DNA of 64,000 nucleotides. Source: a virus. Location: the IMG/VR virus record IMGVR_UViG_3300028584_001237; one strand, given 5' to 3'. The translations under genes and the position numbers were made by a program. The notes under the pieces are model-generated. The model saw only the letters and a list, made by a program, of their open reading frames with translations. It ran no database searches and was not told where the DNA came from. Shown here one piece after another: positions 3,646-48,790 of this stretch. The number at the start of each line of letters is the position of its first letter. Position 1 is the stretch's first letter.

Positions 3646-3655
3646 TTTTAGGGAT

Positions 3656-3683: not shown

Positions 3684-3708
3684 ATTATGTAGAAATCTAA
3701 TATTTATA

Positions 3709-5010
3709 TCAATACATCATAATTTCCAATAATCGAAGATCATCAACGGTTACAACATCAGAATCGACATTGAGAGCTTCCTTTATTTTTTTAGTGACAA
3801 TTTTTAATAACTCATTATATATATCAATGAAACTATCCTTAATTATTTTTTCATTACGATCAAGACTTAATTCTAAATTTTTATCTCCTAAATACAAGGC
3901 AAAATTAGATAGTATAAACAGGTAAGCATAATCATCTTTTCTAGGAGATCGATCAATCTCTGAATAACTACGCCTATGCATAGAAATTTTTTTACCAATA
4001 AGATATTGAAAAGTATCAGGGTATTTTGCATTTGATCTTCTTTTGAAATCTCTCATAGCACAATTATTAAGAAAAAGTTCATCATAAAATTGAAGCAAAG
4101 AAAACACAGAATTTAAATAAGAAAGTTCTATTTCATCCAAAACATCTTTTAAAATATATTTAACAAAAAAATGATCATTTGAATGAAAACTTATGTCAGA
4201 AAAGTAATATTCTTCTATAAAGTAATCAAAATCCTTGATAAAACCCAATTGATTTATACATTCACCTTCTTTAAAATCTTCATTAAAATCGCAAACAAGC
4301 AATGTTTTTAATGGAATATTTTCTACTGATACAGAGGTGCTGTTTATTTTAATTGGATGGTCATAATTACGAAGTCTTTCATTAAATGTGTGATCATCCA
4401 TTATTTTAAAAGTTTTATCAGAAAATTGTTTTTCATAATATTCCCATGTCGATCCATTAACAATTTTCTGTACAATATTATTATCAATAATAAGGCTATC
4501 ATCTTTAAAATATTGATAAAACGCAGATTTAAAGTTTTTAAAAATTAATTCATACAATACATCTATTGTTATTTTTTCAATATTTCTGTATTTAAAAAAA
4601 AGCTCATTGGTCAATTCAACATCTTCAAAAACTCCATCAATATACTTAAAACTGAATAAAGGGCTTTTAAAGCTAAAATAATTATTTGAAAATACAATGT
4701 GACATTCTTCATCGTAGTAACAATTTTTAGAAAAAATTATTTGATAAAAATTAAGAATAGAAAAGAAATTTTTAACAGTATATTTTCCTTCCTCGGGAAA
4801 TATTTTTTCAAAAATAGCTATAATAAGATCATTATCATAATCAAAAACTGAAGTAATTCTATGGTCTTCAAAATTTACACGATTAACTCCTTTGTCATAA
4901 TTAGATTGACCTAAACGATTGTCATAAAGATTAAACCCTAATTCAGAAAGATGGGGCAATAAAATTAATGGATCTCTAATAATTTTTTCAACAAAGAGTT
5001 CTTGATTCAT
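3709..5010 (-). CDS. very AT-rich hypothetical protein, C-terminal motif family (divergent)
   Basis: 433 aa; ends DDLRLLEIMMY. Confidence 0.8.
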   Translation of the reverse strand: MNQELFVEKIIRDPLILLPHLSELGFNLYDNRLGQSNYDKGVNRVNFEDHRITSVFDYDNDLIIAIFEKIFPEEGKYTVKNFFSILNFYQIIFSKNCYYDEECHIVFSNNYFSFKSPLFSFKYIDGVFEDVELTNELFFKYRNIEKITIDVLYELIFKNFKSAFYQYFKDDSLIIDNNIVQKIVNGSTWEYYEKQFSDKTFKIMDDHTFNERLRNYDHPIKINSTSVSVENIPLKTLLVCDFNEDFKEGECINQLGFIKDFDYFIEEYYFSDISFHSNDHFFVKYILKDVLDEIELSYLNSVFSLLQFYDELFLNNCAMRDFKRRSNAKYPDTFQYLIGKKISMHRRSYSEIDRSPRKDDYAYLFILSNFALYLGDKNLELSLDRNEKIIKDSFIDIYNELLKIVTKKIKEALNVDSDVVTVDDLRLLEIMMY

Positions 5011-5186
5011 TTATGATACTTCCTATGATTTTTAAGTTATTAATAGTTCAAACGTTCTGCATTCGGTCAAACCTCGCATCTGCTGTTTACCTTTACTATT
5101 TTATTAACCAATTCTTTATATTCAACGCTTTTCATCAAATTTATATTCATAATTCTCTCCAAAGTAAAGAGGCTGAAGTCTCTTTT

Positions 5187-5654
5187 TTAATTGGCATTAA
5201 AGATCAATGGGATTAAAAACTTTTCTTCTATTTCTGCATAAAGACCATCAAAATCAGGATTCTTTATCGGAATTCCAAGTTTACTTTCGCATTCTTTCAT
5301 AAATACTTCAAATTTATCGGGATCGTCATCTAGGCAAAATAAGAAATAAGGCCAATTTGACTCTGTATCACCGACAATTTTAATTGTAAATTCGTTGTCT
5401 ACATGAACTATATAATCTATATTATTTAAATTTAAAACACCATAAACATAAGAGTTAATCTCATAAAGAACATTTATTGTTTTTATTATGTTAAAATTAT
5501 TTACAGATTCTTGATTAGCCAAATCCTCTACATAATAAGATTTATCTTCAAAAGGAAAAGAATTAATATTTTTAAATCTTCTCCAAGGATATGGATTTAT
5601 AATATCATCAACTATCTTTTGATATTCAGCACTTCTCATTAATTCAATATTCAT
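5187..5654 (-). CDS. candidate immunity protein for upstream nuclease toxin
   Basis: acidic 155 aa ORF 31 nt after the toxin stop; C-terminal half loosely SUKH/SMI1-like (IVHVDNE...YFL). Confidence 0.5.
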   Translation of the reverse strand: MNIELMRSAEYQKIVDDIINPYPWRRFKNINSFPFEDKSYYVEDLANQESVNNFNIIKTINVLYEINSYVYGVLNLNNIDYIVHVDNEFTIKIVGDTESNWPYFLFCLDDDPDKFEVFMKECESKLGIPIKNPDFDGLYAEIEEKFLIPLIFNAN

Positions 5655-5685
5655 AATTTCTCCAATAAGATTAATAATTTAACAT

Positions 5686-6762
5686 TTATTGATACAAACA
5701 CAATATTTGATTCCTTAAATAAACTTGATCCAATGCAACGAGAACCTTTGGATTATAATCAGAATTTATATAATGCCAACTAAAATCATCTATGGTAGCT
5801 TCTGATAAGTTGGTATAGTTTTGCTTATAAAGAATCTGATCTCTCATTGTTCGACCGTCTTCATGAAGAGTTTTTTCTATATTAACAGCACTTGCATTTT
5901 TTGTTATTTCTAATTCAACAGATGTAGGTAATTTTCCACCACCATAATCACGATGCATTATATACATCATAACAGTTGCTTTTGATGGAATATGATCATT
6001 TTCTCTGGTATCAGGCTTTGAATGATTCCGCAACACTTTATAAGCACCAGTATCCCACTCAGCAACTCTAAGATTGCCACTAGCGTCTCTTGATACATGC
6101 TGTGTACTAATAGGGGTTATTGGCATTACATTTTTGATAACTTCTCTTTGAGCATAACCGCAGTTTACTGGATTTTCTCTTTCTATTCTTTTAGTATTAA
6201 CTTTTAATCTTGATTTAATATTTTCATAAGCTTTAGACTTAGTATTTAATCGTTCTTTATAAGCTGGATCATAAAGACCTGTTTCAATAGCAACATCAAT
6301 AGCTCTTTGACTGTATTTTGTATTTGGGTATCTGATGATATAATATTCCAATTCATCTTTAGCTTCCATTATAACATCAATATGATTCTTTTTTGGATTA
6401 TTTAAATCATTTGTGATACGCTCACTTAAATGAGCTACAACCGTTGAATCTGGATCATCAGTAGCAAGCTTTCTGGCAATATGATCATTAAGACTTAAAT
6501 AATCATATGCTTTTTTACCTAAAATAGCAGTGCCAGTTACAACAACAGCACCACCAACACCATATTTAATAATTTTACCAGCCTTTTTAGCCGCCACAGC
6601 ACCAGTAACAACTTTTGCACCAGTTTTTATTTTACCGAGCCATTTGCCTTTTGGTTTTTCACCTGCGTCTGGATAATAGCCATCTGTTGGATATGTAGCT
6701 GTAGCAGCATTTACTACGGAACAAAAACATAAAATAAAAATCCCTATTATAATTTTTTTCAT
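5686..6762 (-). CDS. secreted protein with C-terminal HNH-type (DHIPS...H) nuclease toxin-like domain
   Basis: Sec signal MKKIIIGIFILCFCSVVNA; GAYKVL...ENDHIPSKAT...SAVNIEKTLH resembles Rhs/polymorphic toxin DNase tips; promoter TTGCTT-N17-TATACT upstream. Confidence 0.6.
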   Translation of the reverse strand: MKKIIIGIFILCFCSVVNAATATYPTDGYYPDAGEKPKGKWLGKIKTGAKVVTGAVAAKKAGKIIKYGVGGAVVVTGTAILGKKAYDYLSLNDHIARKLATDDPDSTVVAHLSERITNDLNNPKKNHIDVIMEAKDELEYYIIRYPNTKYSQRAIDVAIETGLYDPAYKERLNTKSKAYENIKSRLKVNTKRIERENPVNCGYAQREVIKNVMPITPISTQHVSRDASGNLRVAEWDTGAYKVLRNHSKPDTRENDHIPSKATVMMYIMHRDYGGGKLPTSVELEITKNASAVNIEKTLHEDGRTMRDQILYKQNYTNLSEATIDDFSWHYINSDYNPKVLVALDQVYLRNQILCLYQ

Positions 6763-6825
6763 AATTCCTCCAAAACCGTGGAGTATATATGAATATAATT
6801 AATAAAGCAACTTAAATTTAAAACA

Positions 6826-6852
6826 ACAAAAAAGAGGCCAAAGCCTCTTTTT
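6826..6852 (-). terminator. intrinsic terminator (GAGGC family)
   Basis: hairpin flanked by A/T tracts. Confidence 0.85.
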
Positions 6853-7193
6853 TACACCTTTACAAAATACCCATCGGATGAATGTTCAAGATGTTTACCA
6901 AAATCATCATTGACTGTATAGCCATTCGATTTCAAATCATTCAACAATTGATGACCATCGACTGGTTTTCCATCTACACGGTCAACGATATCAAGACAAT
7001 CATCGCCATTCTGCCCTGACACTTCAAAGATGTATCCCGGCAACGTAAATTGTCTAGAATATTCTTCCAAGAAATCAGGATGATCCATAAGAGTTTCAGT
7101 ATCCCATGTTTTCTTGGTCACCATATGAAGAACAATCTCATCGTTTTCTGTATCTTTAAGTACGGTGTAGTAAAAATCATTTTTAAGATTCAT
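6852..7193 (-). CDS. hypothetical protein
   Basis: 113 aa acidic ORF. Confidence 0.8.
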   Translation of the reverse strand: MNLKNDFYYTVLKDTENDEIVLHMVTKKTWDTETLMDHPDFLEEYSRQFTLPGYIFEVSGQNGDDCLDIVDRVDGKPVDGHQLLNDLKSNGYTVNDDFGKHLEHSSDGYFVKV

Positions 7194-7249
7194 CAGGTTT
7201 GTCCTTTCGTTAAGTTTTTGTAAAATTTTAAGATCAATGAGTTGTTGAG

Positions 7250-7453
7250 TTAATGATATTCAAAAAACTGGCATAAATCAACTTTAAGAACATAGAACTT
7301 TTCATTCAACAAAAGAACATTATCATTTTCAGTTGGAGCAATGGTTACAATAGAGCTAACTACCATTGCCCTTCGAGTATGTTCAGGAATCTTAGTCGGA
7401 TCTTGCTTGTGTACATTTAAATAATTAACAATATAGATTAGTTTGTTATTCAT
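7250..7453 (-). CDS. hypothetical protein
   Basis: 67 aa ORF, AAGGA SD. Confidence 0.7.
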   Translation of the reverse strand: MNNKLIYIVNYLNVHKQDPTKIPEHTRRAMVVSSIVTIAPTENDNVLLLNEKFYVLKVDLCQFFEYH

Positions 7454-7465
7454 TTGACGTTCCTT

Positions 7466-8233
7466 TTAAGTAATAGCTGGTTGGTTTTGTGTTACAAACT
7501 CTTCAATATCTACTTCAACAAGCTGTTCATCAACCACTTTGTAAACAGTTTTGATATAGCTACCAAGCTGTTCAAGATCATGATAGAACTCAACCACATA
7601 CCAGTCTGGTTTAGGTACATGTCCCGAGACTTTATTAATTTGGTTAATGCAGTATTTCATTTCTTTATGATGCTGAAAGCTGTAAGTGCTACATTTGTAA
7701 AGGCCAGCATGTTTTTTATTGCGTTCACGTTCTAATTCATAAACCAAATTTTCCCGTGAAGTTACCGCCAACTGAAGTTCACAATGTTTACCATCAACGG
7801 TGTACTTATTCTTTTCGACATCAGGTGTGAATTTAAAATAAATCGTGGATGCTCGACTAGGATTGAAAATTTCCCCAAAGAACAAGGACGCAAAGAAAAG
7901 TCCTTCATAAGAGTTTTTAAATGTAAAATCGTCCAGAAAGGGCTTAAGATTATCAATGTCTACCTGAGATAATCCATCCTCTAAGTACATGCTATTTGTT
8001 TTTTCCCAAGAATCTCGCCAAAACGGATTGGAAAAATCAAAAATGATGTTTTTGAAAGAATAACGTGGATTTTTAGGCTCAATGAAAAGCGAGAACCGAT
8101 TAGAGGTTGATTGAGCAAAATAACAGTCTGAAATATTGCTGTCTGGATGGTTTAGAATTTCTTTCAACCGCGATAGAAACTCATAATGTTTGGTCAAGTC
8201 GGTGTAAAAAGAAACGCGATTGTCTGATTCCAT
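7466..8233 (-). CDS. hypothetical protein
   Basis: ORF track 7466..8272; start moved to ATG 8233 after GAGG. Confidence 0.8.
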   Translation of the reverse strand: MESDNRVSFYTDLTKHYEFLSRLKEILNHPDSNISDCYFAQSTSNRFSLFIEPKNPRYSFKNIIFDFSNPFWRDSWEKTNSMYLEDGLSQVDIDNLKPFLDDFTFKNSYEGLFFASLFFGEIFNPSRASTIYFKFTPDVEKNKYTVDGKHCELQLAVTSRENLVYELERERNKKHAGLYKCSTYSFQHHKEMKYCINQINKVSGHVPKPDWYVVEFYHDLEQLGSYIKTVYKVVDEQLVEVDIEEFVTQNQPAIT

Positions 8234-8354
8234 GATAAAACCTCTGTATAATAGATTGCTGGATAGTATCAAATTTATTTGATTTCGTCAATGTTATTAT
8301 ATATAAAACGATAAAAGGCCACCAAAGTGACCTTTAAGAAAATCAAGATGAAAG

Positions 8355-8759
8355 TCAATCTCGCCAGTAAACTTGAAACTTTTCACCTTTTTCATCATAA
8401 AATAAAACTTGCATCATTGTCATGTCTGCAAAATACAACATGGCTTCATGAGCAGTGGCATCACGTTCAATTTCAATGTAGACAGGTTCACCATCAATAT
8501 CAACCTGAAAGTTAAATTCCCAATTGTTGATATCAGCCAAAAACTTATCAGGAAATGGTGAACTCTGCCGTCTATTTTCACGAATGGCAGTTTTGAGTTC
8601 ATCAAATAAAAGAATATACTTTTCGAGATCCTTAAAGTTGCCACTACGAATTTCGGTCCAACTTGAATTGCTGTGGTCGGAATCACCATGCTCATAGTCA
8701 ACTTCAATTTCAAAGCGTGGAAGCACATTCTTTACAATGGATTTCAATTCAAATTGCAT
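8355..8759 (-). CDS. small acidic protein, module copy 1 gene C; paralog of 13225..13626
   Basis: M.FEL.......PRFEI...Y.HG N-terminus and YDEKG.KF.V.W.D C-terminus shared. Confidence 0.85.
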   Translation of the reverse strand: MQFELKSIVKNVLPRFEIEVDYEHGDSDHSNSSWTEIRSGNFKDLEKYILLFDELKTAIRENRRQSSPFPDKFLADINNWEFNFQVDIDGEPVYIEIERDATAHEAMLYFADMTMMQVLFYDEKGEKFQVYWRD

Positions 8760-8867: not shown

Positions 8868-10295
8868 TTACAAGGTGTTTTTTGATTTTGTCTTTTTTGG
8901 AGTAGGTGTGTCATCTTGTTTATAGATTTTAAACGCTTCTTTAAACTTTTTCGAATGGTGAATTTCTATAGATTTTTTCATGTCTATATCACCATTCAAC
9001 AATATAAGATTAGGATATTGTTCTTGAACAAGTTTATGTAGCTCATCTTTTCTTATATGATATAAAAATGAACAATTATTGTCATCTAAATCAAGGATGA
9101 TTTGATTTTTTTCCAAGTAATCTAACACAGATAAAAGATAATCAATTTTCTTTTCATCAGGCGTGGCGTGAGCAATGTCAGATTGAATATAAGTGCAAAT
9201 TTTCAAATCAGCTTTATCAATAATAGTTAAATTGTGATAATAAGGTTTGAAAAATATGTTATCACCGTATATATGAACACTATTCGTTTCAGATTGCATA
9301 AAGCGGCCTGAGATGTGTGTATAACCATCCGTGTAGGTAGGATAAGCGGATATGACAAAAGATTTAGAACTTAATAGATCGAAGTCAGCAGTAGATTCTA
9401 ACAAAGAAACACCCATTGCTCTAATACCATTATCATCTATTACAGAATGAACCAAGGAATCATCAAAAGATTTAAACCATTCTGGATAACTTGATTTTAG
9501 ACTATCTATGAATTCGTTTAACGCTGGTGTATTTAACAACTCTTCTTCTGTTTTAGCATTAAGCAATAGACCTGTTTTCAAAATTTGCTGAAATTTGAAT
9601 AAATCAAAATATTGATCAAGAGCAGTATAGTAATCGTCCATTAATTTATCATAACTTGTTTCACATGGGCCAGAATACCCTTCCGTAGTAACAATCACAA
9701 AAGATCTAAACTTCTGAGCCATTTGGTAGACACTAAAATCGGAACCCAATAATATTTCAGAAGCTAACTGTTCTTTTAATTGCTCAAGATGATGCTTAAC
9801 AGTATTTTCTTTTGGTTGTTCTTCCTTTAATGTTGTTCCCAAATTTTCAAGTGTATTGGCAATATTGAAAGCTAACAGTCTATATGATATTCGGTCAGTA
9901 TCGGAGGAATCAATATTCTTACTATATTCTTGTTTAAAGTTCTCAACAAAAGACTTAAAAGAATGGCTCTCTTTCAAAATAGCTAACATTTTTTCGGCAT
10001 TTAAATGATCTTCTTTTCTTAATACAGGTACAGAATTATTGATTTCTCCTTTATGTAAGTCAAAAAATATAGAATCATCTAACTTTACAACAAAGTTTTT
10101 GTTATGATACTGCAATAAAATAGGATGCTTTGCAGAATCCGTTTTCGCAATAGACAAATTATAATAATCGTTGAGAAAAGTAGATTGGCAAAATTTAATC
10201 GTGGCGTAATAATCAAAGTTACTATCAGTGATAGCATGTGTTGATTTGAAATCTGTTAATGAAGATAAGAATTCTTGTGATGTAGCTTTTTTCAT
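8868..10295 (-). CDS. uncharacterised 475 aa protein, module copy 1 gene B; paralog of 13689..15074
   Basis: full-length similarity (MKKAT..EF, AYP.YTDGY.HIS.RF); 4-nt ATGA overlap with upstream gene; basic tail. Confidence 0.85.
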   Translation of the reverse strand: MKKATSQEFLSSLTDFKSTHAITDSNFDYYATIKFCQSTFLNDYYNLSIAKTDSAKHPILLQYHNKNFVVKLDDSIFFDLHKGEINNSVPVLRKEDHLNAEKMLAILKESHSFKSFVENFKQEYSKNIDSSDTDRISYRLLAFNIANTLENLGTTLKEEQPKENTVKHHLEQLKEQLASEILLGSDFSVYQMAQKFRSFVIVTTEGYSGPCETSYDKLMDDYYTALDQYFDLFKFQQILKTGLLLNAKTEEELLNTPALNEFIDSLKSSYPEWFKSFDDSLVHSVIDDNGIRAMGVSLLESTADFDLLSSKSFVISAYPTYTDGYTHISGRFMQSETNSVHIYGDNIFFKPYYHNLTIIDKADLKICTYIQSDIAHATPDEKKIDYLLSVLDYLEKNQIILDLDDNNCSFLYHIRKDELHKLVQEQYPNLILLNGDIDMKKSIEIHHSKKFKEAFKIYKQDDTPTPKKTKSKNTL

Positions 10296-12139
10296 ACATT
10301 TCTCATTTTTAAAGGTTTAGTTACTTTTTTAACATCTCTAAAATTAAGAGATTCTTCCATTTCAAAAAGTTTCTCTTCTGATAGTTTGTGTTGTTTTCTA
10401 TTAGTGTAAATAGTGTTTGTTTGTATATGTGCAAGATCTTCTGATTTATCATATGAACTAATAGCGTCATCATTTTTTAGATGTTCAGCATAAATTGTAC
10501 CCCACTTATCAACAGTAAATCCAATCATGGAATTAATATCAGTTGAAGCTTTATTGAAGTCATACATAATATACTGAATATTACGACGATCAGAAACATA
10601 CTGGTCATAGTATTCTTGATCTCGAACAATACACCAAGAGGTTGAACCTAATGCTTCACATTGCTCATAAGTCTTAACCTCAAAAGTAACAACATTATTA
10701 TCATCATGAAGTTTATTTATTCCCAATGCAGATATTTTTTCAGATAAGGCTTCTTGTGTAAACCCATCAACATGATTAAGTATTCCACTCAACATAGAAA
10801 TAACATCTTCATTAGAATCAAGTGCAGCCAGTTTTTTGCCCACAAACGTTTGTAATTGAGCAGTTGTTACATTGTTGTCATATAAGGCTTTAAAATGAGG
10901 CTCGGTGATGTCATTAAATAAATGTTTATATTTAGCACTAAGAATACTAAATGCAAATTGTTTTATTTTATTTTTGTTGACTATATGGTTAATGTCATCG
11001 TCTATTGATTCAAATGTTTTATTCTTCCAAGAATTCAAATCAACATTATATTGTTTTAGAACCGAGTAGTTATCTAAAAATGAAATAGCTGCAGTAATAG
11101 AATTGTTATAGCTTACATCTTCTTTTAACTTATCTTGAAAGAAACTAATTGTCTTAGGTTTCTTTCTTAATAAATAAGCGAGAGCATCATTATGAAGGTC
11201 ACTGATAAAAGCTTTCAATGATTCGGTATCTTTGAATGTGTGATATTGACCATCCCTTTTATAAGCAATGCTGGCATCGTCAAAAAAGACAACTTTATTA
11301 ATTTTTTGAGCCGCTGTGAAATCAATAGACGTATAAACAGAATCATCAGTTAACATTTTTTCAATAAGAAAACCTTCAACAGATGATGTGTCATTATTTT
11401 TATTTAAAGTCTCTATAAACAAATCTGCATTCGTAATAAACATTGAAGGATTTATTTTAGTAAGTTCAACTTTAACAGTATCTAAGAATATCTGATTAGC
11501 AACGGTATATTCGTCATATAACTTCGTTAAGTTATTCATGTCAGGAGTATTGTTTTTTATATAATTCTCGATAGAGTTAACAACATAAGATTTGTCATCT
11601 TTATGAAGTAAAGAAATACCTAATTGATTAGTTAATGTGTAGTTAAACATTAAAAATTTATTAACTTCAACATATTGTTTTTCAATTTTTTTTGAAATTT
11701 CTTTTATTGATTTTATTTGCTGAGCAAGTGTATCCGACATGTCCTCATTAAATTCATAAGACCCAGCCATTTGTGAATAATAAAAATCAGACCATACGGA
11801 ATTAACATCATCTTGAAGATCTGTCATTAACATAATGTGGTTTTTTTCAAAAGAATCTGGTGTAACCTTGGAAGCATAAAGGTCAACATCAAATTCACTA
11901 TTTAGAGAAGATACATCCGTGGATAGTATGGTGTCAACATAGCCAGATAATTTAGCAATAGTCTCTTTTATGTTTGGAACATTAGTTAATATTCTGTTGG
12001 CTTTATTTTTTTTCAACTCGGGTATAAAGGTCATTTCGTTATAATGTAAAAAATTATAAGAATTTACAGCCTCCCAACCATCGGGTGCAAGTCTAGTGGC
12101 TAAGTGTGTAATCTGTTTTAAACTTTCTTTCAAATCCAT
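10292..12139 (-). CDS. 615 aa protein with C-terminal PcfJ-like (LG.TSWCI.RD) domain, module copy 1 gene A
   Basis: EV..YEQC.ALG.TSWCIVRD..Y..QY motif; paralog of 15071..16912 and 35399..37258. Confidence 0.7.
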   Translation of the reverse strand: MDLKESLKQITHLATRLAPDGWEAVNSYNFLHYNEMTFIPELKKNKANRILTNVPNIKETIAKLSGYVDTILSTDVSSLNSEFDVDLYASKVTPDSFEKNHIMLMTDLQDDVNSVWSDFYYSQMAGSYEFNEDMSDTLAQQIKSIKEISKKIEKQYVEVNKFLMFNYTLTNQLGISLLHKDDKSYVVNSIENYIKNNTPDMNNLTKLYDEYTVANQIFLDTVKVELTKINPSMFITNADLFIETLNKNNDTSSVEGFLIEKMLTDDSVYTSIDFTAAQKINKVVFFDDASIAYKRDGQYHTFKDTESLKAFISDLHNDALAYLLRKKPKTISFFQDKLKEDVSYNNSITAAISFLDNYSVLKQYNVDLNSWKNKTFESIDDDINHIVNKNKIKQFAFSILSAKYKHLFNDITEPHFKALYDNNVTTAQLQTFVGKKLAALDSNEDVISMLSGILNHVDGFTQEALSEKISALGINKLHDDNNVVTFEVKTYEQCEALGSTSWCIVRDQEYYDQYVSDRRNIQYIMYDFNKASTDINSMIGFTVDKWGTIYAEHLKNDDAISSYDKSEDLAHIQTNTIYTNRKQHKLSEEKLFEMEESLNFRDVKKVTKPLKMRNV

Positions 12140-13688: not shown

Positions 13689-15074
13689 TTAAAAAGTGGG
13701 TTTATTTTTGAGCGGTTTAATCAACGTTAGCTTATCTTTATGATAGTTTTCTAATGCTTCCTCAAATGACTTAGATTGAGTAATAGCTCCTATTTTTTTA
13801 AACCCTAAATCATGATGGATTAAAATAAGATTAGGATACTCAGAGGTAACAAGTTCCACTAATTCTTCCTTATTAATGTAATGATAAAGAGTGCTGTCTT
13901 TTGAGAGGTCGATAATAATGTTGTTTTTGTTCAAGTAATCCAATACCGGCAATACGAAGTTTTTTCTGTCTGAGTGCTTAATACAAAAGGCAACATCAGA
14001 ATCAACACCTTTACAATAAGTAAGTGCCACTTCTTTCTCTATGTGAAGATTATGATAATAAGCTTTAAAGAAAACATTGTCACCATACAAATGAACAAAG
14101 TTTAATTCAGCTTCAATAAATCTATTGGAAATATGAGAATACCCATCAGTATAGCTTGGGTAGGCAGTTGCCATAAACGATTTAGGTTCTATAAGGTCAA
14201 AGTCAGCCGTAGCGTCAGCCAAAGGCACACCTGAGAACCTGATAGCGTTGTCATCGGTCATACAGTGGGTTAACGATTCATCAAACGATTTAAACCATTC
14301 TGGGTGCTTTAGCTTGGCGTCTTCAATGAATTGATTAAGCAATGGCTTATTTAGCACTTCATCTTCTTTTTCAGCATTTAATAGTCTGCCAATAATCAAC
14401 GATTGCTGAATTTTAAATAAATCGAAATATTTATCAAAGCGTTCATACAAAGTATTCATAATGGTATCAGGATCTTCCGTAGTCCTAATTCTAAACAAAT
14501 GCGTCAACTGATAAGTGGTGAGTTCATTCCCAATGTATAATGAAGTGGATAACTGATCAATTAATCCGTCAAGGTAATGACGAAGTGATGTTTCATTGAC
14601 AACTTCTTTACTCAATGCCTCTTTTAAACCATCAAATAGTTCTATAATTTTGATAGATGAAATACCTCTGTTAAGCTTTGAAACATTGTTATGGTCATCT
14701 AAAAATTTGAATGCAGGTTCTACGAATTCTTTAAAGCTACGACTGTCATCCAATATCTTCTTGAGTTCCTGTATCTGTTCAAAATGTTTATTTTTAATAA
14801 TGGGAACAATTTCTGGTCGGCTAGGTGAATCTAACTCCGTAAATTTATTGATTACATCATCCTTAACTAATAAATTACGGGTAGAATGACCAATCATGAT
14901 AGGATGCTCATCAGAATCGGATTTAACCAATATCATGTCATAGAAATTATCAAGTAATGTTGATTTATAGAACTTAAAAGTTGCATAATAATCAAAGCGG
15001 TTGTCTTCAATGTTGTTTTTTGACTTGAACTCATTTAATAAGTCTATAAATTCTTCTTTAGTTGCTTTTTTCAT
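13689..15074 (-). CDS. uncharacterised 461 aa protein, module copy 2 gene B
   Basis: paralog of 8868..10295; ATGA overlap; ends KPLKNKPTF. Confidence 0.85.
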   Translation of the reverse strand: MKKATKEEFIDLLNEFKSKNNIEDNRFDYYATFKFYKSTLLDNFYDMILVKSDSDEHPIMIGHSTRNLLVKDDVINKFTELDSPSRPEIVPIIKNKHFEQIQELKKILDDSRSFKEFVEPAFKFLDDHNNVSKLNRGISSIKIIELFDGLKEALSKEVVNETSLRHYLDGLIDQLSTSLYIGNELTTYQLTHLFRIRTTEDPDTIMNTLYERFDKYFDLFKIQQSLIIGRLLNAEKEDEVLNKPLLNQFIEDAKLKHPEWFKSFDESLTHCMTDDNAIRFSGVPLADATADFDLIEPKSFMATAYPSYTDGYSHISNRFIEAELNFVHLYGDNVFFKAYYHNLHIEKEVALTYCKGVDSDVAFCIKHSDRKNFVLPVLDYLNKNNIIIDLSKDSTLYHYINKEELVELVTSEYPNLILIHHDLGFKKIGAITQSKSFEEALENYHKDKLTLIKPLKNKPTF

Positions 15075-16912
15075 GAAAATCTCATCTGTAAAGGTTTAGT
15101 TTGTTTGATATTCTTAATACCAAGAATATCTTCCATATCAGCAATAGTTTCTTCTGATAACGAGTGTCGCTTTTGATTTTTGTAAATAGTGTCTGTCTGG
15201 ATAGCAACAAGACTGTCTGCCTTATTGTAATGGCCTATCGAAGAGTCATCCTTCCAGTGTTCGGCATAAATGTTGCCAGTTTTATCGACCGTAAAACCAA
15301 CCATTGATTCAATGTCTGTTGATAATTTATTGAAGTCGTAAATTATATATTGATTGTTTTTTCTGTCTGTCACATACTGGTCGAAATAATCTTCGTCACG
15401 AACAATACACCAAGAGGTTGTGCCTAATGCTTTACATTGTTCATAATCTATAACTTCAAAGGCGACCACATTATTAGCATCATGAATTTTTTGTATACCG
15501 AATGATGCCAACTTCTCAGTTAATGCCTCTTGAGTAAAGCCATCCACATGATTAAGAATACCATTCAACATAGAAATGACATCTTCGTTTGAATTAATTG
15601 CTGCTAATTTTTTACCCACAAATGTTTGTAATTGTGAAGTCGTCACATCGTTATCAAAAAGTGCTTTGAAATAAGGTTCAGTCTCTTCATTGAAGTGGTG
15701 TTTATATTTAGCACTCAAAATACTATAAGAGAACTGTTTAATTTTGTTCTTATAGACCAAATTGTTAATGGTGTCATCAATCAACTCAAAACTCTTATCA
15801 GAAAAGTTATTTAGATCAAAGTTGTATTGCTTTAATATTTGAGAATGTTCTAGGAACGATGTCGCTGCTTTGATAGAGTTACCATACTCAGAATCTTCTT
15901 TCAATTTGGTCTGGAAGAAGCTGATCGTTTTAGGCTTTTTTCTGAGCAAGAAGGCTAATCCTTCTTGGTGAATATCACTGATGAATTCAGCAAGGCCATC
16001 ATTGTCCTTGATGGTGTGATACTGGTTATTTCGTTTGTAGGCAATACTGTTATCATCAAATACGAAGGCTTTCTCTATTTTTTGAGCGGCTGTGAATTCA
16101 ACTGTGGCAAGTAACTGATCTGAGAACATTTTTGTAGCCAAGAAATTCTCAACTGAATTATTAGCTTGATGTTGTAATTCTTTGGCAATGAAAGCGTCAG
16201 CCTTTGTCACGAAAGTCTCTGGGTTGATTTCTATCAAGGCTTCTTTGATGTCTTTCAATAAGGCCGCATTTAAATCCTTATATTGCTCATATAAGGATGT
16301 CAATTCGTTAATATCAGGCATTTGTTCTGCGTACTTATTAATAGAAGACACAACATATAATCGGTCTTCTTCATGCAACATTGATTTAGGTAGTTGTTCA
16401 GACAACGTATAGTAAAATAAAAGAAAACGATTGATTTCATTGTGTTTAGCATCTAAATCTTTTGCCACTTGATTAATGAGTTCACGTTGGTCTTCAAATT
16501 TGTTAATGACGGATGGATCTTTTTTCACTGATTTATCTTGCCCATAACAATAGAAGTCAATCCAAGCACCATTGATTTCAGCTTGTAATGATGTGTGCAA
16601 ATTAATATTTTTATTATCATTAACATTGATGGCAATACTGGATGAATACTTATTAACGTCGAATGGCGTAGTTAACGAGTTAAGATCAGTTTCTTGTATA
16701 GTTTTTATAAATTTAGCCACTTTATCAATAGCATCTTTGATAGATGGACCTTTAGTAACAACTCTATTGGCTTTATTGTTATGTAAATATGGGATAAAAG
16801 TCATTTCATTATAGTTTAAGTACGTGTTTCCAAACGTATTATCTCTTACAGTATCAGTAAATCTTAAATATTTTAATAATGCAATTGTTCTTAAGTTGTC
16901 TCTTAATGTCAT
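15071..16912 (-). CDS. 613 aa PcfJ-like domain protein, module copy 2 gene A
   Basis: LGTTSWCIVRD motif; ends KPLQMRFS. Confidence 0.7.
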   Translation of the reverse strand: MTLRDNLRTIALLKYLRFTDTVRDNTFGNTYLNYNEMTFIPYLHNNKANRVVTKGPSIKDAIDKVAKFIKTIQETDLNSLTTPFDVNKYSSSIAINVNDNKNINLHTSLQAEINGAWIDFYCYGQDKSVKKDPSVINKFEDQRELINQVAKDLDAKHNEINRFLLFYYTLSEQLPKSMLHEEDRLYVVSSINKYAEQMPDINELTSLYEQYKDLNAALLKDIKEALIEINPETFVTKADAFIAKELQHQANNSVENFLATKMFSDQLLATVEFTAAQKIEKAFVFDDNSIAYKRNNQYHTIKDNDGLAEFISDIHQEGLAFLLRKKPKTISFFQTKLKEDSEYGNSIKAATSFLEHSQILKQYNFDLNNFSDKSFELIDDTINNLVYKNKIKQFSYSILSAKYKHHFNEETEPYFKALFDNDVTTSQLQTFVGKKLAAINSNEDVISMLNGILNHVDGFTQEALTEKLASFGIQKIHDANNVVAFEVIDYEQCKALGTTSWCIVRDEDYFDQYVTDRKNNQYIIYDFNKLSTDIESMVGFTVDKTGNIYAEHWKDDSSIGHYNKADSLVAIQTDTIYKNQKRHSLSEETIADMEDILGIKNIKQTKPLQMRFS

Positions 16913-30172: not shown

Positions 30173-31129
30173 CTACGATTGTTTTTTGAAAGTGCTTATT
30201 ACCTGAATTTTCTGTTTAGGTTTTGTTGGCTTGAAATCCAATTTATGTTCAACCATGTGATTAAGCACATCCATTGTGTAAGCTGAGTCATTACCAGCCA
30301 CATGGAGATAGGTGTAAGGAATAGCAAATGTCCTGAGTGCTGTTCGAAGAGACGCCGTTTCATTTTTAATATGGTCACTGTTCAAAAAATGAAATTCGTT
30401 TTTCGTCACATTAGCGGTGTCGATAAATTTGACATTTTCAAAAAAAGATTCATCAATACCCAGATGTTTAAACACTTTAAATTCACTCTGAATATTATGA
30501 CCAATCAAATAGTCAACACCAAAAAAGTGTTCTTCAAAGATACTTAATATGGACGATTTGTCTACATTGATAGTTTTACCAAAATTGAAATTTTCTTTTG
30601 TAGTGTTGACAAAAGAATAATTGAAACATGCTCTCATGCCATTAATCTCAATAGTGATTCCCATTTCCACAGGCTCAACATCATTACCCATTGGGATGAA
30701 TTCAAAATCAACAGCCATCAATTTCTTATTTACAAAATTCGTAGGCAACGGTTGATTTAACAATGACATTTTTGCAGAACGCTGTTTGTTTTTTTCAATG
30801 TTAACAACTTTTCGACGGTCTTCAAACTCTCGTAGCTGTTCAACACTATCAATAGAAAATGAATCTTCACAACAAGGTACATGACATTTTGCGTAAATCG
30901 CAGGTTTTGCCTTCAAGCCAAAATGCTTGCGGAGTTCTAACAGGTAATTCATGAAGGTTTCTTGATCAATATAGATTGCAGAATCATGCGTATACAACTT
31001 TTGAAATAGACCTATTTCAATAAGGTTTTCAGCCAACATGAATTTTTGAATATCTATTCTGCGGTCAATTTGATCAGCAGAAATTCGATTTAAAGTAACA
31101 CCACGAATTTTGTCAATGTGATAGTACAT
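30173..31129 (-). CDS. DEDDh (DnaQ-like) 3'-5' exonuclease
   Basis: ExoI AVDFEF, ExoII IGHNIQSE, ExoIII HVAGNDS. Confidence 0.8.
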   Translation of the reverse strand: MYYHIDKIRGVTLNRISADQIDRRIDIQKFMLAENLIEIGLFQKLYTHDSAIYIDQETFMNYLLELRKHFGLKAKPAIYAKCHVPCCEDSFSIDSVEQLREFEDRRKVVNIEKNKQRSAKMSLLNQPLPTNFVNKKLMAVDFEFIPMGNDVEPVEMGITIEINGMRACFNYSFVNTTKENFNFGKTINVDKSSILSIFEEHFFGVDYLIGHNIQSEFKVFKHLGIDESFFENVKFIDTANVTKNEFHFLNSDHIKNETASLRTALRTFAIPYTYLHVAGNDSAYTMDVLNHMVEHKLDFKPTKPKQKIQVISTFKKQS

Positions 31130-35398: not shown

Positions 35399-37258
35399 AT
35401 GGTAAACAAGGAAATATTAGGTTTTGGCATGTTACACTCTTTCATAGTGGGACAACACTACCCAAGACCAAACAATATAATTGTAGAAGGCGAAACCACA
35501 AGAAAAAAATCGGATAGGTTACAAATTAACTTGAATTCGATTTCATTAAAGTTAAACTCATTAAATAATGTTTCGCATACAATAAACTCATTAGTAAAAC
35601 TAACAGAAACAGGCAAGATTACAGCAGAAGTTTCAGATCTTATGGCTATTGGAACAGATATTCACTGGATGTTAAGCCGACAAAATGATGTCATCAAACA
35701 GCTAAATATGATACAACCTATGATGAAACAAATTCTTGAAGACTTAAAGCAGCACGATCAAAAAGATTACATATCTGAAGAAATAATCAATTTAGAAAAA
35801 CTAATTAAAAATTTTAGTACCGATCCATTTATTTCAAACATTAATGAATCCTTTAAGAAAGAAAGCGATTTCTTAAACCAAGTGGATTTTGTGGCTGATC
35901 GTGCTGGTAGAGAAATAAAAAACCTTAATAGATCAAGCCACGCTTACATAAACCTAGAAATAGCCAGTAATCCTAGCTTAAAAAATTTGGAAATTAAACT
36001 AACTGAATTAAGAGAACAATTTCCAGAGCTTTTGAAGTACAAAGAAAAAGACTCTGAAATTATGGACTTAACTGGCGTAAAAAAATATATTTCAGATTTT
36101 GAAACTATCTCGATAAGTGCGTATAAAAAAATGATAGCAAATGGATTAAGCTTCTGTCAGGCTGATAATTTCGTAAGATATGAGAACAATAAAAACTCAA
36201 CTATTAAGGATTTCGTAAAAAACTTAGAAAATAAAGATTTTAATATAATGTTTGATAAAGAGATAGTAGGTTCTTATGACAGAGTGATAAGTTTTCATGA
36301 TGATTCAATAGTGTTCAGAAAGAAAGATGGTACCTATGTGCCTATTTATGATATAAAAGAAGTTCAAGATATTCACAATCAAATAATAAAAGATTCAATA
36401 AGAATTGAATTTAATAAAAACCCACAAATTGCTAAAAATTTCATCGAGATTGCAACTAGAAATAATTTCAGTAATGTTCGTGATTTAGAAATCGCCATGA
36501 ATACTTACAAATCAAACATGGACATTTTAAAAATGTATAAAATCGATCCGTTAGAAACCTATTTAGAAAAGTCAGCCACAGCTAATAAGTTTCGAGACAT
36601 TGAAGTTGTAGACGACTATTTAAACAAAGTAGTTAAGGAACATAAAATAAAACAGTATGCTCATAGTATATCGAGCAATAAGTATGAACATCTTTACAAT
36701 GAAGAGACTTATTCTATTGCAGGACTGCTATATGAAACGACAACAAAAGAATTTTTACAGGAATATATAGGTAAAAAAATTGCAGCCTTTAAAACGCCTA
36801 ATGATCTTAATGCAGCCTTAAAACAATTGTATAGTTCATTTAATGATTTCACTATGGAAGCGATTACATTAAAAGCAGAAAATAATAATGTCAGAATTGT
36901 TGTTGAAGCTGACGATTTACTTATTGTTGAAGTCATTGATTTTGAGCAAAGCAAAGTGATGGGAAGCCCTAGTTGGTGTATAGCCAGAGATGAATCATAT
37001 TTTAAAAGCTATACGGGTGATGGTAAGCAACAGTATTTCGTTTATGACTTTTTGAGAGAAGCTGAAGATGAATCTAGTATGATTGGAATTACACTGGATA
37101 ATGGGGAATGCTCTGCAGCCCATTACAAAGATGATGAGCCAGTTGATACGAAGGATTCAGATCTTAGAGAGTATATCGAACTCATCAACGACACCGAAGT
37201 AAAATTGATAGCTGATGCTAAAAATGATAAAGTTAAAAAACAAAACTTTACACTATAA
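35399..37258 (+). CDS. 619 aa PcfJ-like domain protein, third stand-alone paralog
   Basis: KIKQYAHSI.S.KY.HL.N.ET, IGKKIAA, MGSPSWCIARD; ends KVKKQNFTL. Confidence 0.7.
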   Translation: MVNKEILGFGMLHSFIVGQHYPRPNNIIVEGETTRKKSDRLQINLNSISLKLNSLNNVSHTINSLVKLTETGKITAEVSDLMAIGTDIHWMLSRQNDVIKQLNMIQPMMKQILEDLKQHDQKDYISEEIINLEKLIKNFSTDPFISNINESFKKESDFLNQVDFVADRAGREIKNLNRSSHAYINLEIASNPSLKNLEIKLTELREQFPELLKYKEKDSEIMDLTGVKKYISDFETISISAYKKMIANGLSFCQADNFVRYENNKNSTIKDFVKNLENKDFNIMFDKEIVGSYDRVISFHDDSIVFRKKDGTYVPIYDIKEVQDIHNQIIKDSIRIEFNKNPQIAKNFIEIATRNNFSNVRDLEIAMNTYKSNMDILKMYKIDPLETYLEKSATANKFRDIEVVDDYLNKVVKEHKIKQYAHSISSNKYEHLYNEETYSIAGLLYETTTKEFLQEYIGKKIAAFKTPNDLNAALKQLYSSFNDFTMEAITLKAENNNVRIVVEADDLLIVEVIDFEQSKVMGSPSWCIARDESYFKSYTGDGKQQYFVYDFLREAEDESSMIGITLDNGECSAAHYKDDEPVDTKDSDLREYIELINDTEVKLIADAKNDKVKKQNFTL

Positions 37259-37350
37259 GAAGACTCTTCGAGAGTCTTTTCTTTTTGAATATACTCGAAA
37301 AGTGAAGATAAAAAAAGGCCACCGAAGTGACCTTTATGGTTTAGAACAGT

Positions 37351-37403: not shown

Positions 37404-37736
37404 TTATTTCATGCCACTAACTTTAAAAGTACGGCGTTCTCGGGTCAACTTAACCTTGTAACGCTCATGATGGCACAGTGTTTTGTCCCAAGACAAGCCC
37501 AAATCACCTTCAACCATCAAATTATCGGGTTGATCGCCCACTCGTTGCCAACCATTAGCCGTAAGCACTGGGGTTTCATAAAAAGCCTGCCACTGACCAT
37601 TAGGTTGCTGAGCCACACAATGATGGTAGTAGTAAAGCCCGGTCAGAAAGACACCAGTAGCTTCAATTTCTTTTCGTTCTGACCCATTGGGTTGTTTGCA
37701 CGCATGGAGTGCTTTCATTTCAGCGTCTGTTTGCAA
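37404..37736 (-). CDS. hypothetical protein
   Basis: TTG 37736 (GGAGG SD) or ATG 37718. Confidence 0.75.
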   Translation of the reverse strand: MQTDAEMKALHACKQPNGSERKEIEATGVFLTGLYYYHHCVAQQPNGQWQAFYETPVLTANGWQRVGDQPDNLMVEGDLGLSWDKTLCHHERYKVKLTRERRTFKVSGMK

Positions 37737-37737
37737 T

Positions 37738-38214
37738 TTAAGCCTCCGAAGGCACAGAAAATTTCGGGTTGGAAAATTTTGTGTCTTTTTTTGCTTTGGT
37801 GGTATCAAAGTCCATGAAACCATACGGCCATTTTACAAGAAAACCTTTCGGATCATAAGTCGATTCAAACTGAATGGACTGGTTGTCGTCAGACATGACA
37901 AACACTCGAACATCTTCTGCCTTAATATCACCGGAGTGAATAAGATGACCAACCAAGTTGAGCGGCACTTCGGAATGAGTCGAGATATTTAGATCCCAAC
38001 TACCAGCACAATGTTTAATATCTTCCAAAACCTTTTCAGCAATTTTTTGTGGATGAAGATTTTTCTCAATCAAATGACGATGGGTAGCATTAACCCAATA
38101 GTGGACTACACCGGGTGCGATGTGTTCAGTACCTTCAAAACCTTGTGGGCCACCACCACATTGGAATTTCAGGTCTTGAATGTTCAAGCCGACAAACAGA
38201 TTGATTTTAGACAT
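37738..38214 (-). CDS. stand-alone C-terminal half of an AAA_15/AAA_21-type ABC ATPase with DUF3696-like tail
   Basis: EGTEHIAP (~EQPE.HLHP), ISTHSE H-loop, D..G.LVKWP.GFMD; no Walker A. Confidence 0.55.
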   Translation of the reverse strand: MSKINLFVGLNIQDLKFQCGGGPQGFEGTEHIAPGVVHYWVNATHRHLIEKNLHPQKIAEKVLEDIKHCAGSWDLNISTHSEVPLNLVGHLIHSGDIKAEDVRVFVMSDDNQSIQFESTYDPKGFLVKWPYGFMDFDTTKAKKDTKFSNPKFSVPSEA

Positions 38215-38315
38215 TGTATTACTCCAAAGAATTTTGTTTAGATGGTGAGTATATCAAAATAACCTAGTCTATACAAGGAAATAATGATTACTCGCCATCA
38301 ACAGGAGTGAAATAA

Positions 38316-38501
38316 TTAACGAACGTGCTTAGTAACCACTGTGTAGCAACGCTGAATAATTCGATGGGTTTCTTGAGGCTTTTTGTTGTCTAGTCGGCGT
38401 TTCTTAATGCGAGCTTTTGCTCGGGTGGGGGCTTCGGCCAAAACGACTGATTGATCAAGGCCACTCACGATGTCATATTCATAATGCACATTTTTTCGCA
38501 T
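38316..38501 (-). CDS. small basic protein
   Basis: 61 aa, AGGAG SD, own promoter. Confidence 0.7.
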   Translation of the reverse strand: MRKNVHYEYDIVSGLDQSVVLAEAPTRAKARIKKRRLDNKKPQETHRIIQRCYTVVTKHVR

Positions 38502-38633
38502 GTCGATTTCTCCTATAGAAAATTGAACCTTATAATATCATATAATCAAGGAAAATAACATCACCATTGGTCTAATTGAAAAATAAAAGACAATAAAAAA
38601 CCTACCGAAGTAGGCTTTTTTATTAATCAATTA

Positions 38634-42620: not shown

Positions 42621-43532
42621 TTACATCAACCCTTCATGCTTCAAGATGATAACCCGAGCAACTTTGATAGCATCTTCAAGCGAACCACGGAAGAAGGTCA
42701 AGAAACCACCTTTATGGCAGAAATAAAGCCCCGGAATGCCAGAAGCGAGTTCCAGTTCCTTCTCTTTCAAACCAAGCCAGTCTTTCGGTGCAGGACATTT
42801 CTGAGAAAAGTCGTTGCGTGGGTCAGTTGGCACAGTTTTAATCGCCCACATTCCGTTACTGTGTGGGTAGATAACCAGTGTTTTGTCAGTCAATTGAGCA
42901 ATACGCTTGGAAGCATCTTTAATGTTACTATCGCATACAACAATATCTTTGTAATCTTTGCTTTTTTCAATGGCTTTGACAATTTCTTTTTCAGCTTTCA
43001 TGTTGCCACGAACGTAAGCGAAGTAGTTTTTCAAGTAGTCTTTTGCAGCACGAGATGCCATTTTAAACTGGCGGTCTTGTGCCCGTGGGTCATCTGGTTT
43101 ACGGTTATACATGATAAGCAAAATCAATTCGGACATTTTTTCCAAACCGTTATCATGTTTATCGACACGACGAATCAAGTCGTTTTCAAAAATGTTCATT
43201 GTATCTTCGTTCATATGCTGGTGAAGTTTCTTTGTTTCACGCAACCATTTCCAAACGATACCGCAAGAAGAATAAGGCAAGCCATCAGGCCAGCAAAGGC
43301 TAGGATCATTCTGGTGATGGTCAAAGTTCAACATGGCCGGGTCATAAACACCACCCACATCAATAACAAAAGCTTCTGGATCTTTGCGGGCTTCGGCAAG
43401 AATTTTCTCATCACGGGTGCGGATCACTTCATATTTGCCATCGGTATTATCAAAGTGATACTCGCTCAAAAGAGCAATGGCGATAAGTTCGTCAATGTGA
43501 AATTGTTGAGAGTGAGTGAAAACTTTAAACAT
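42621..43532 (-). CDS. myg1: MYG1 family 3'-5' exonuclease
   Basis: TH...FHIDE, IRTRD, IDVGGVYDP...FDHHQ, SSCGIVW; start ATG 43532. Confidence 0.9.
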   Translation of the reverse strand: MFKVFTHSQQFHIDELIAIALLSEYHFDNTDGKYEVIRTRDEKILAEARKDPEAFVIDVGGVYDPAMLNFDHHQNDPSLCWPDGLPYSSCGIVWKWLRETKKLHQHMNEDTMNIFENDLIRRVDKHDNGLEKMSELILLIMYNRKPDDPRAQDRQFKMASRAAKDYLKNYFAYVRGNMKAEKEIVKAIEKSKDYKDIVVCDSNIKDASKRIAQLTDKTLVIYPHSNGMWAIKTVPTDPRNDFSQKCPAPKDWLGLKEKELELASGIPGLYFCHKGGFLTFFRGSLEDAIKVARVIILKHEGLM

Positions 43533-43627
43533 GGTCGTAATTCCTATGATGTTTGATGAAGCTATTCTATCAAAAAACAGAAAATTAAGCAATCAATAAG
43601 ATCACTAAATCATCTGTTTGCTGAAAA

Positions 43628-47672: not shown

Positions 47673-48170
47673 TTAAGCGTGTTGACGCTCAAAATCAATC
47701 ACGTAGTGGGACATGCTGTTGAAAAGTGATCGTGGAATATCGCCCATGAAAGGGTTGCCTTTTGGATCAAGCATACCCGTTGCCAAGACGATATCCCCTT
47801 CTGCAAGTGACAAGCCCAGCACATTGCGTTCTAACACTGCTTTACTGAAAGCTTCAATGCCAGCAGGCGAAGCATTAGACAACTCATCAAAGATGAAAGC
47901 CAATTTCTTACCGTTTATTTCACGGGACCGACGTGCAGCTTCGATAAAATTAGGCAACAGCACTTCGCCATTGATTTGAGGATGAATGAGATCAGAGTAG
48001 TCAAGATGGGAAGTTGCAATACGATTCCCATAATAAACAGGGGCAGCAAAATGATCCATCAGGTAATTAACAGAACCATTACCGGGCCGTGACCAAACAA
48101 CGAAAGCTTTTTCTTTGTTTACATTATCAAGAAAACCAGCTTTAACAGTTTGGATTTTTTGCTTAGTCAT
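47673..48170 (-). CDS. degenerate MoxR-like AAA+ domain (Walker A Lys absent)
   Basis: VVWSRPGNGS, FIFDELSNASP, VLER...G..L..GDIVLATG. Confidence 0.6.
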   Translation of the reverse strand: MTKQKIQTVKAGFLDNVNKEKAFVVWSRPGNGSVNYLMDHFAAPVYYGNRIATSHLDYSDLIHPQINGEVLLPNFIEAARRSREINGKKLAFIFDELSNASPAGIEAFSKAVLERNVLGLSLAEGDIVLATGMLDPKGNPFMGDIPRSLFNSMSHYVIDFERQHA

Positions 48171-48283
48171 GGTGAAGTCCTCTATTCGATTGAATATACA
48201 GTATAGCAAAAAAAATGAAAAAATCAAAGTGAAAACAATAAAAAAGAGGCCATTAAGCCTCTTTTTTCTAGTGACAGCTTTTG

Positions 48284-48790
48284 TTATGCAGCCATTTTTT
48301 CATGATGAAGAACATAATGAGCAACCTTGTTCATCAACGGCATAGGGACAACATCATTAATCATGTTGCCTTCACTATCAAGTTTACCAACAGCCATGAC
48401 AATATCAGTTTCTTTCAAATCCATGCCACCAAATTTACGATTAACAACAGCGTCATAAAAAGCTCGTGAACCAGCAACAGTAGAACTCGACAAATCGTCA
48501 AAAATCAACACAAGTTTTTTACCTTCTCGTGCCTTATCAACAGCCTTCATTTCATTCGAAATGTGATGGCTGATTTTCTTGTCATCGCCAAGAACTGGAG
48601 GAGCCATGAATGTTTCATAATCCACTCGCTGCATAATAACACGCTGCACATGATATTCTGGTTTGTCGAAGTGGTTCACAACAGTTGCCAACGCACCAGT
48701 GCCTGCACCAGCCCAAACAACAGAGCTTACATTCAGGTTGATTTTGTCAAGAAAGTCAGCTTGTACAGTCGGGATATTTTTAGCGTTCAT
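48284..48790 (-). CDS. degenerate MoxR-like AAA+ domain, paralog of 47673..48170
   Basis: VVWAGAGTGA, LIFDDLSSS, VVNRKFGG..L.ETDIVMAVG. Confidence 0.6.
   Translation of the reverse strand: MNAKNIPTVQADFLDKINLNVSSVVWAGAGTGALATVVNHFDKPEYHVQRVIMQRVDYETFMAPPVLGDDKKISHHISNEMKAVDKAREGKKLVLIFDDLSSSTVAGSRAFYDAVVNRKFGGMDLKETDIVMAVGKLDSEGNMINDVVPMPLMNKVAHYVLHHEKMAA

Follow-up and report, generated by a model that had tools for sequence, protein, structure and literature searches.

A predicted nucleotide-blind relative of NsnB-type defence ATPases in a giant phage-like element, a candidate decoy against Menshen-like defence

The viral DNA analysed here, a stretch of 64,000 nucleotides referred to below as the window, carries on one strand a unit of three small genes enclosed between two terminator-like hairpins, the middle one of which is the subject of this study (Table 1). 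A GGAG ribosome-binding site and dN/dS values of 0.12–0.38 at dS of about 1–2, obtained from codon alignments of ORF 37738–38214 against four related loci (L008–L011, two of which, L008 and L010, show close synteny to the window), reveal that it is a genuine gene under purifying selection. Its close homologs (n = 16, 130–158 aa, identity 50–100%) share an invariant MSK start and many further invariant columns, and a megablast search with 3 kb around the gene gave no match among 50,697 phage records. The downstream 104-aa ORF adjoins the gene in L008, L010, and L007 and lies elsewhere in L009. Neither this ORF nor the 61-aa ORF nor the other neighbours could be assigned to a family in Pfam or PHROG; the Cys/His-rich 104-aa protein could be a partner of the 158-aa protein or an independent small zinc protein. 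Just 3′ of the three-gene unit, a 619-aa ORF (35399–37258, plus strand) looks like an insertion of a mobile or duplicated gene; it is absent at the syntenic place in L008, is paralogous to ORFs of 615 aa (10292–12139) and 613 aa (15071–16912), and shows 33–63% identity to the copies in L009.

Table 1. Positions, all on the minus strand, of the three-gene unit and of the sequence elements read within its middle gene.
Feature	Position	Strand	Description
Terminator-like hairpin	38595..38620	(-)	Closes the preceding gene; upstream bound of the three-gene unit
Basic 61-aa ORF	38316..38501	(-)	Upstream of the 158-aa gene in the same hairpin-bounded unit; adjoins the gene also in L008 and L010
Shine-Dalgarno GGAG	38222..38225	(-)	7 nt 5′ of the ATG; read from sequence
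Gene of the predicted mini ABC core	37738..38214	(-)	158 aa, ATG start; NsnB-derived, DUF3696-tailed short form
INLFVGLN, residues 4–11	38182..38205	(-)	Likely remnant of the beta-strand into Walker A
IEKNLHP, residues 49–55	38050..38070	(-)	D-loop region, corresponding to PE-LHL-HP after Walker B
ISTHSE, residues 77–82	37969..37986	(-)	H-loop strand; IIETHSE in long forms
DUF3696-like tail, residues 97–135	37810..37926	(-)	Beta-hairpin and GFLxxWPYGF
Cys/His-rich 104-aa ORF	37404..37718	(-)	Downstream, in the same hairpin-bounded unit
Terminator-like hairpin	37314..37335	(-)	End of the three-gene unit

The element to which the window belongs has close relatives on metagenome contigs of 1.54, 1.84, 1.85, 1.86, and 1.92 Mb (1,539,155; 1,843,594; 1,851,360; 1,859,102; and 1,917,244 bp), so that it assembles repeatedly at about this size, and its gene content resembles that of jumbo phages. 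Locus L008 comes from the 1.86-Mb contig and shares synteny with the window at 75–85% nucleotide identity, and a 290-kb IMG/VR ‘provirus’ (G001) is part of the 1.54-Mb contig. The virion Pfam families Gp23, Terminase_6N, Phage_sheath_1, and Baseplate_J gave no match in G001, Gp23 being silent in the control genomes too. The window itself contains three tRNAs, an SLT-type transglycosylase, ORFs mostly without a family, and a 293-aa ORF whose product shares about 30% identity with proteins of Rak2-like jumbo phages (GAP32, CBB). This element, which we call a ‘giant phage-like element’, is not clearly a phage; it may be a replicon of giant phage-like or plasmid-like type, or else a giant prophage lying in a bacterial chromosome. 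Any mobile element can be expected to carry anti-defence genes, so its true nature changes little in the decoy reading given below. A host suggested by a Cytophagales MAG was rejected, the match being one stray 641-bp contig.

The 158-aa protein is homologous, far beyond chance, to the last ~90 residues of NsnB-like ABC ATPases of about 500 aa. Word-indexed searching gave no longer homologs of it; they were found by an exhaustive profile search, in which a profile built from 16 homologs yielded 643 matches at E ≤ 0.001 among 1.84 billion representative proteins. The set analysed, composed of the best 150 of these 643 matches and the close homologs, contains 77 short proteins (68–170 aa) and 88 long ones, mostly of ~500 aa, in which the matched part is the C-terminal ~90 residues (E down to 1e-9). 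The long proteins are AAA_15/AAA_21 ATPases, several of them with DUF3696, and find their best PADLOC match in NsnB (1e-46 to 1e-52), followed by PDC-M55A, HEC-03B, and AriA; their Menshen-type label is thus one given by PADLOC HMM scores, not by operon context. For the 158-aa protein itself, NsnB (PDLC03878) is also the best PADLOC match (E 1.6e-5, in the last third of the profile), the PADLOC profile of PDC-M55A matches as well, and PHROG 10245, a phage family of unknown function with 107 positions, aligns its positions 27–106 with residues 49–135 (E 5e-9). When the short family was compared with 25 long ATPases by hhalign, the probability was 99.6 and the E-value 8.7e-24, residues 51–142 of the 158-aa protein pairing with the extreme C-terminus of the long ATPases. 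The Pfam model PF12476 (DUF3696) alone matches residues 97–135 over model positions 1–43 of 52 with E 0.069 and 13.8 bits, below the gathering cut-off of 22 bits; P0046, P0052, and P0056 of the hhalign target alignment score 20.7–32.4 bits with the same model, P0046 and P0052 exceeding 22, and the DUF3696-like tail is, by that hhalign E-value, homologous to the tails of these threshold-passing proteins. In the PDB, both single-sequence phmmer and the family profile gave chance matches only, and no relative is found there. The context of a Menshen operon is absent around the gene, since Pfam reveals neither NsnA (DUF262/ParB) nor an inPIN NsnC as a neighbour, and the neighbours of the short-form genes vary between lineages.

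Three stretches, I-E-Q-P-E-L-H-L-H-P, I-I-E-T-H-S, and G-x-L-x-N-W-P-x-G-F-F, are invariant in the long forms. From these and nearby positions the 158-aa protein keeps E50, L53-H54-P55, T79-H80-S81, N86, G89, and D101, as well as G124, L126, W129-P130, and G132-F133 in the tail, all of them likewise conserved across 67 divergent short forms. Conservation within the short family reaches at least 90% for E50 and H54, and in the H-loop it is 93% for T, 69% for H, and 82% for S; between the short and long families the DUF3696-like tail is the best-conserved part. The residues most strongly kept are specific to the DUF3696-tailed subgroup (WPxGF, GYL, LHP) and are not general ABC features. By contrast, the elements that serve nucleotide binding are missing. 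A regular-expression search found no Walker A motif, GxxxxGK[ST], in the 158-aa protein or in the 77 short relatives, and GLNIQDLKF replaces the P-loop GENSSGKST in the former. The Walker B acidic pair is also absent, the 158-aa protein having H-L-I-E against the invariant E415-Q416 before P-E in the long forms, with the last E (E50) as the sole acidic residue kept of the Walker B/P-E stretch; E452 of the long forms is lost as well. As only ~35 residues lie between strand 1 and the Walker B strand, the signature (SGG/GxG) motif, the helical lobe, and the Q-loop are absent, and nothing aligns to columns ~60–410 of the long forms. We infer from its sequence that the 158-aa protein can neither bind nor hydrolyse ATP as ABC proteins normally do.

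These results largely agree with what the first-pass annotation, made from the letters of the window, had observed. The strings that it quoted, EGTEHIAP (residues 27–34), ISTHSE (residues 77–82), DVRVFV, and YDPKGFLVKWPYGFMDFD, are all present; ISTHSE, named there as the H-loop, indeed aligns with IIETHSE of the long forms, and the reported lack of a Walker A motif and of a coiled coil is borne out by the search described above and by the AF2 model, which contains no coiled coil. EGTEHIAP, taken for a degenerate Walker B/D-loop, was misassigned: it belongs to a variable linker, the D-loop equivalent being IEKNLHP. The kinship to the Menshen ATPase suggested there is matched by the PADLOC result for NsnB, and the proposed DUF3696-like tail of a defence-type ABC ATPase, sub-threshold in Pfam alone, is recovered by the profile–profile comparison with DUF3696/AAA_21-type ATPases.

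A scan of all six frames of the window with an HMM of the long ATPases, filters off, returned ORF 37738–38214 alone (E 3.9e-18, HMM positions 422–515), and nothing like the N-terminal 400 HMM positions was found in this 64-kb window of the ~1.85-Mb replicon. No NsnB-like N-terminal half was found either in the 12-kb loci around four relatives, in the complete 130-kb genome of the vibriophage ICP1, or in the 290-kb G001. Using an alignment of 67 sequences, AF2 folds the protein into one compact α/β domain (pLDDT 93.2, pTM 0.85); with the 16 close homologs only, pLDDT was 68 and Foldseek on that model found nothing, although a wide structural search on the same poorer model already returned mainly ABC domains. 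The top Foldseek matches in the PDB are retron-Eco8 and PtuA (Septu, retron systems), with probabilities of 0.5–0.9 and weak E-values (0.005–0.1), and the best matches are nearly all defence ABC ATPases. VIA-align gives 148 chains at Z ≥ 5, PDB 8U7I being among the matches; the best 50 are all ABC-type ATPases (SMC, Rad50, UvrA, GajA, and PtuA among them), and the best of all is FtsE (Z 8.7, rmsd 3.0 Å over 97 residues). Residues 1–135 of the model cover the whole nucleotide-binding domain, from ABC residue ~29 in the pre-P-loop strand to the end; the protein is predicted to keep an ABC/RecA-like core fold with its D-loop and H-loop. The N-terminal 48 residues give a single local hhalign match, which is weak (8 columns, E 0.0085) and pairs INLFVGLN with INVLVGEN, the strand of the long ATPases running into GENSSGKST; a match of long-form HMM positions 8–30 to the relative in L004/L011 is weak too. 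Weak as each of these N-terminal signals is, they agree with one another. Since INLFVGLN at the start of the protein has this faint similarity to the strand that precedes the P-loop in the long ATPases, an internal stretch was probably deleted, and we propose with moderate confidence that the 158-aa protein is an internally deleted mini ABC core and not a bare C-terminal half. It originates from an NsnB-type defence ATPase of the Menshen, PDC-M55, or HEC-03 kind. In this descent the P-loop disappeared together with the Q-loop, the signature/helical lobe, and both acidic positions of Walker B, while the core beta-sheet was retained along with the D-loop region (P)E-x3-HP, the THS H-loop, and the DUF3696 tail.

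A tree of the region common to short and long forms, unrooted, built on few columns, and showing clustering but not direction, separates 67 of the 77 short forms from all 88 long forms by a branch with support of 98. The remaining 10 (68–164 aa) nest among the long forms and look like fragments. The N-terminal linker of the short family is highly variable, and the branches of the tree are long. The nearest ESM-Atlas clusters consist of hypothetical proteins of 123–143 aa, 67–100% assigned to Viruses; a scan of viral contigs gave no match with the single protein and, with the alignment, one 290-kb record (G001). Among cultured lytic phages, short forms occur in 81 records of ICP1 or ICP1-like vibriophages, in three Nahant phages of Enterovibrio norvegicus, and in one Pseudomonas phage. 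The short forms are, in sum, an old, diversified, and mostly viral family under purifying selection, not a recent capture. The first-pass annotation, which had described a stand-alone C-terminal half captured from a defence ATPase, is therefore to be amended in two respects: the protein does stand alone, no separately encoded N-terminal half being found in the window, ICP1, or G001, and does descend from a defence ATPase with an ABC-ATPase fold still evident in the structural matches, whereas it is probably more than a C-terminal half, with a likely pre-P-loop strand in a mini ABC core, and its capture was not fresh, given the separation of the short from the long forms. Its observation is confirmed and its interpretation partly supported, and the protein is still a candidate for an anti-defence function.

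The homolog in ICP1 is ORF39 (gp39; UniRef F1D161, ‘uncharacterized protein’), about 34% identical to the 158-aa protein over residues 50–132, falling in PHROG 10245 and on the same side of the tree, and resembling it in a beta-strand-like N-terminal ISIYVSED and a WPIGFF end. It differs in being only 107 aa long, with a much shorter linker, and in residing in a 125-kb lytic myovirus. In data set S1 of PMC7567579, sequencing reads of ORF39 number 0–1 before infection, 5,425–8,036 at 4 min, 4,727–8,618 at 8 min, 1,865–4,034 at 12 min, and 1,336–2,251 at 16 min; the increase from 0–1 to thousands by 4 min and the subsequent fall mark it as an early gene. ORF39 is kept across ICP1 lineages while its flanking genes are swapped. 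Compared with ICP1_2012_A (L003), the 2017 isolate from the DRC (L002) has four additional genes upstream of ORF39 and, downstream, two other genes in place of ORF31–37, with ORF39 retained, so that its surroundings represent a hotspot of gene turnover about a fixed gene. The word-indexed search gave no long relative of ORF39, which is thus not a near copy of the NsnB of its host, and no published function for it was found in the literature. An identification of the homolog with Oad1 was rejected, because Oad1 is Gp205.

Since ATP function in the normal ABC way appears to be lost and the surfaces for partners appear to be still displayed, the most likely role of the 158-aa protein is that of a decoy, and we regard it as a candidate decoy against a Menshen-like defence system, a reading for which we see the case as evenly balanced. 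The mini-protein, nucleotide-blind, would still show the surfaces by which the full-length ATPase meets its partners, and early in infection it would act as a decoy against the Menshen-like defence. AF3 models in a comparative study of Menshen (PMC12065111) have NsnB as a tetramer and the effector NsnC gripped at its inPIN domain by the two DUF3696 tails of a dimer. The mode that we favour is competition for the effector predicted to dock on these tails (NsnC in the case of Menshen), whereby NsnC may be kept off the ATPase or held inactive; alternatively, the mini-protein might cap an ATPase protomer and poison the oligomer, as the first-pass annotation had supposed. Effector competition is favoured because the tail is the best-conserved part and because heads that lack a P-loop and a signature motif should form ATP-dependent dimers only weakly. 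A compact island near guaC with a predicted Menshen is present in all of the pandemic V. cholerae strains examined (PMC12082036), and Menshen is listed in the ‘pandemic core’ defence module of O1 (bioRxiv 10.64898/2026.07.13.738241, 2026 preprint); the predicted island in the pandemic V. cholerae makes the decoy reading plausible and testable. Together with the early expression of ORF39, it provides circumstantial evidence that makes an anti-defence role more plausible. A further step, which we put forward tentatively and with more doubt than the decoy reading itself, is that the short proteins may be the first anti-Menshen proteins, ORF39 allowing ICP1 to grow on Menshen-bearing pandemic V. 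cholerae and the 158-aa protein acting likewise for the giant phage-like element. No anti-Menshen protein was found in the literature, and the main text of the paper on the EVADES catalogue (268 anti-defence proteins) names neither Menshen nor an ABC-ATPase-derived protein.

Other roles have to be weighed against that of a decoy. The protein may be a takeover or regulatory protein whose target, in the host or in the phage, is unrelated to defence, for example an ATPase of the SMC, RecN, or RecF type or a nuclease, its descent from a defence ATPase being history only. The age of the short family, its strong divergence from the long forms with long branches, and its very variable N-terminal linker are all compatible with this role, as are the facts that the early genes of ICP1 mostly have no known function and that word-indexed searches found no close host-like donor. 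However, it is the residues peculiar to the DUF3696-tailed subgroup (WPxGF, GYL, LHP) that are kept best, and the best matches of the family are all defence ATPases, so we consider a target outside defence unlikely, although deserving serious attention.

Less probable still is that the protein serves as a subunit of a system of the element’s own, be it a split enzyme or a module for defence or competition carried by the phage, with a Walker-A partner or a nuclease encoded elsewhere. The search covered 64 kb of a ~1.85-Mb replicon, leaving room for such a partner, and two small ORFs, which adjoin the gene in three relatives, are co-oriented with it between the same terminators; against this, searches of the window, ICP1, G001, and 12 kb around each of four relatives yielded no NsnB-like N-terminal half, the neighbours vary between lineages, and the protein is confidently folded by AF2 on its own as a closed domain. 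The missing of every catalytic motif would also suit a degraded defence gene that survives as an inert relic, and the ten very short fragments among the long ATPases demonstrate that such debris exists in the databases. This explanation is strongly disfavoured and is hardly credible in view of the low dN/dS (0.12–0.38 at dS 1–2), the conservation of start, length, and ribosome-binding site, the high AF2 confidence, and the retention of the gene, amid changing flanks, in 81 ICP1-type records, with transcription early in infection.

The candidate decoy is worth comparing with the known systems to which it is related by descent or by concept. With NsnB, PDC-M55A, and HEC-03B (AAA_15/AAA_21 with DUF3696), it has in common the LHP, THS, and GxLxNWPxGF motifs and the ABC core fold, whereas it is 158 aa long instead of ~350–540, lacks Walker A, the Q-loop, the GxG/signature lobe, and the Walker B acidic pair, is phage-encoded, belongs to a lineage separate from the long forms, and has no NsnA or NsnC as a neighbour. 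Oad1 (ICP1 Gp205) and Gad1 are phage inhibitors that bind ABC-ATPase nucleases of the OLD family, namely Vc OLD and Gabija GajAB, respectively (bioRxiv 10.1101/2025.01.06.631583). They are alike in being phage proteins proposed or shown to neutralise an OLD-type ABC-ATPase defence by direct binding. In contrast, the gene of Oad1, gp205, lies at the opposite end of ICP1 from ORF39, and the candidate inhibitor described here is a cut-down copy of its target’s own family, an origin that we did not find reported for Oad1 or Gad1. AcrIF3, an anti-CRISPR that mimics the helical bundle of Cas8f and thereby imitates a Cas subunit, is alike in concept, as a viral protein imitating a part of an immune complex to compete for its partner; its fold and target differ.

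If the decoy reading is true, the counter-defence would consist of a host defence ATPase cut down to a nucleotide-blind core with an effector-docking tail, and decoys derived from immune proteins would be added to the ways in which phages act against ABC-ATPase defences (Gabija, OLD, PARIS, Septu, and Menshen). Neither the mechanism of Menshen nor a phage inhibitor of it is known in the literature searched; an inhibitor that is itself a cut-down NsnB would point to the ATPase surface that matters and offer a biochemical handle. As ICP1 is genetically tractable and its host has a predicted Menshen, a ready test system is at hand.

Elsewhere in the window, tandem ORFs of ~170–180 aa each (47673–48790, minus strand) are read as dead MoxR-like AAA+ domains, one of them having a weak match to a PHROG ‘ATPase’ family (phrog_1297, E 4.8e-4), and constitute a second case in the window of small ATPase-derived proteins. 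An exonuclease-like protein of the MYG1 family (UPF0160; 42621–43592, minus strand; Pfam E 9.7e-46) and a protein with a DEDDh exonuclease C-terminal domain (30173–31129, minus strand) are the sole confident Pfam assignments among the 20 ORFs of the window that were scanned.
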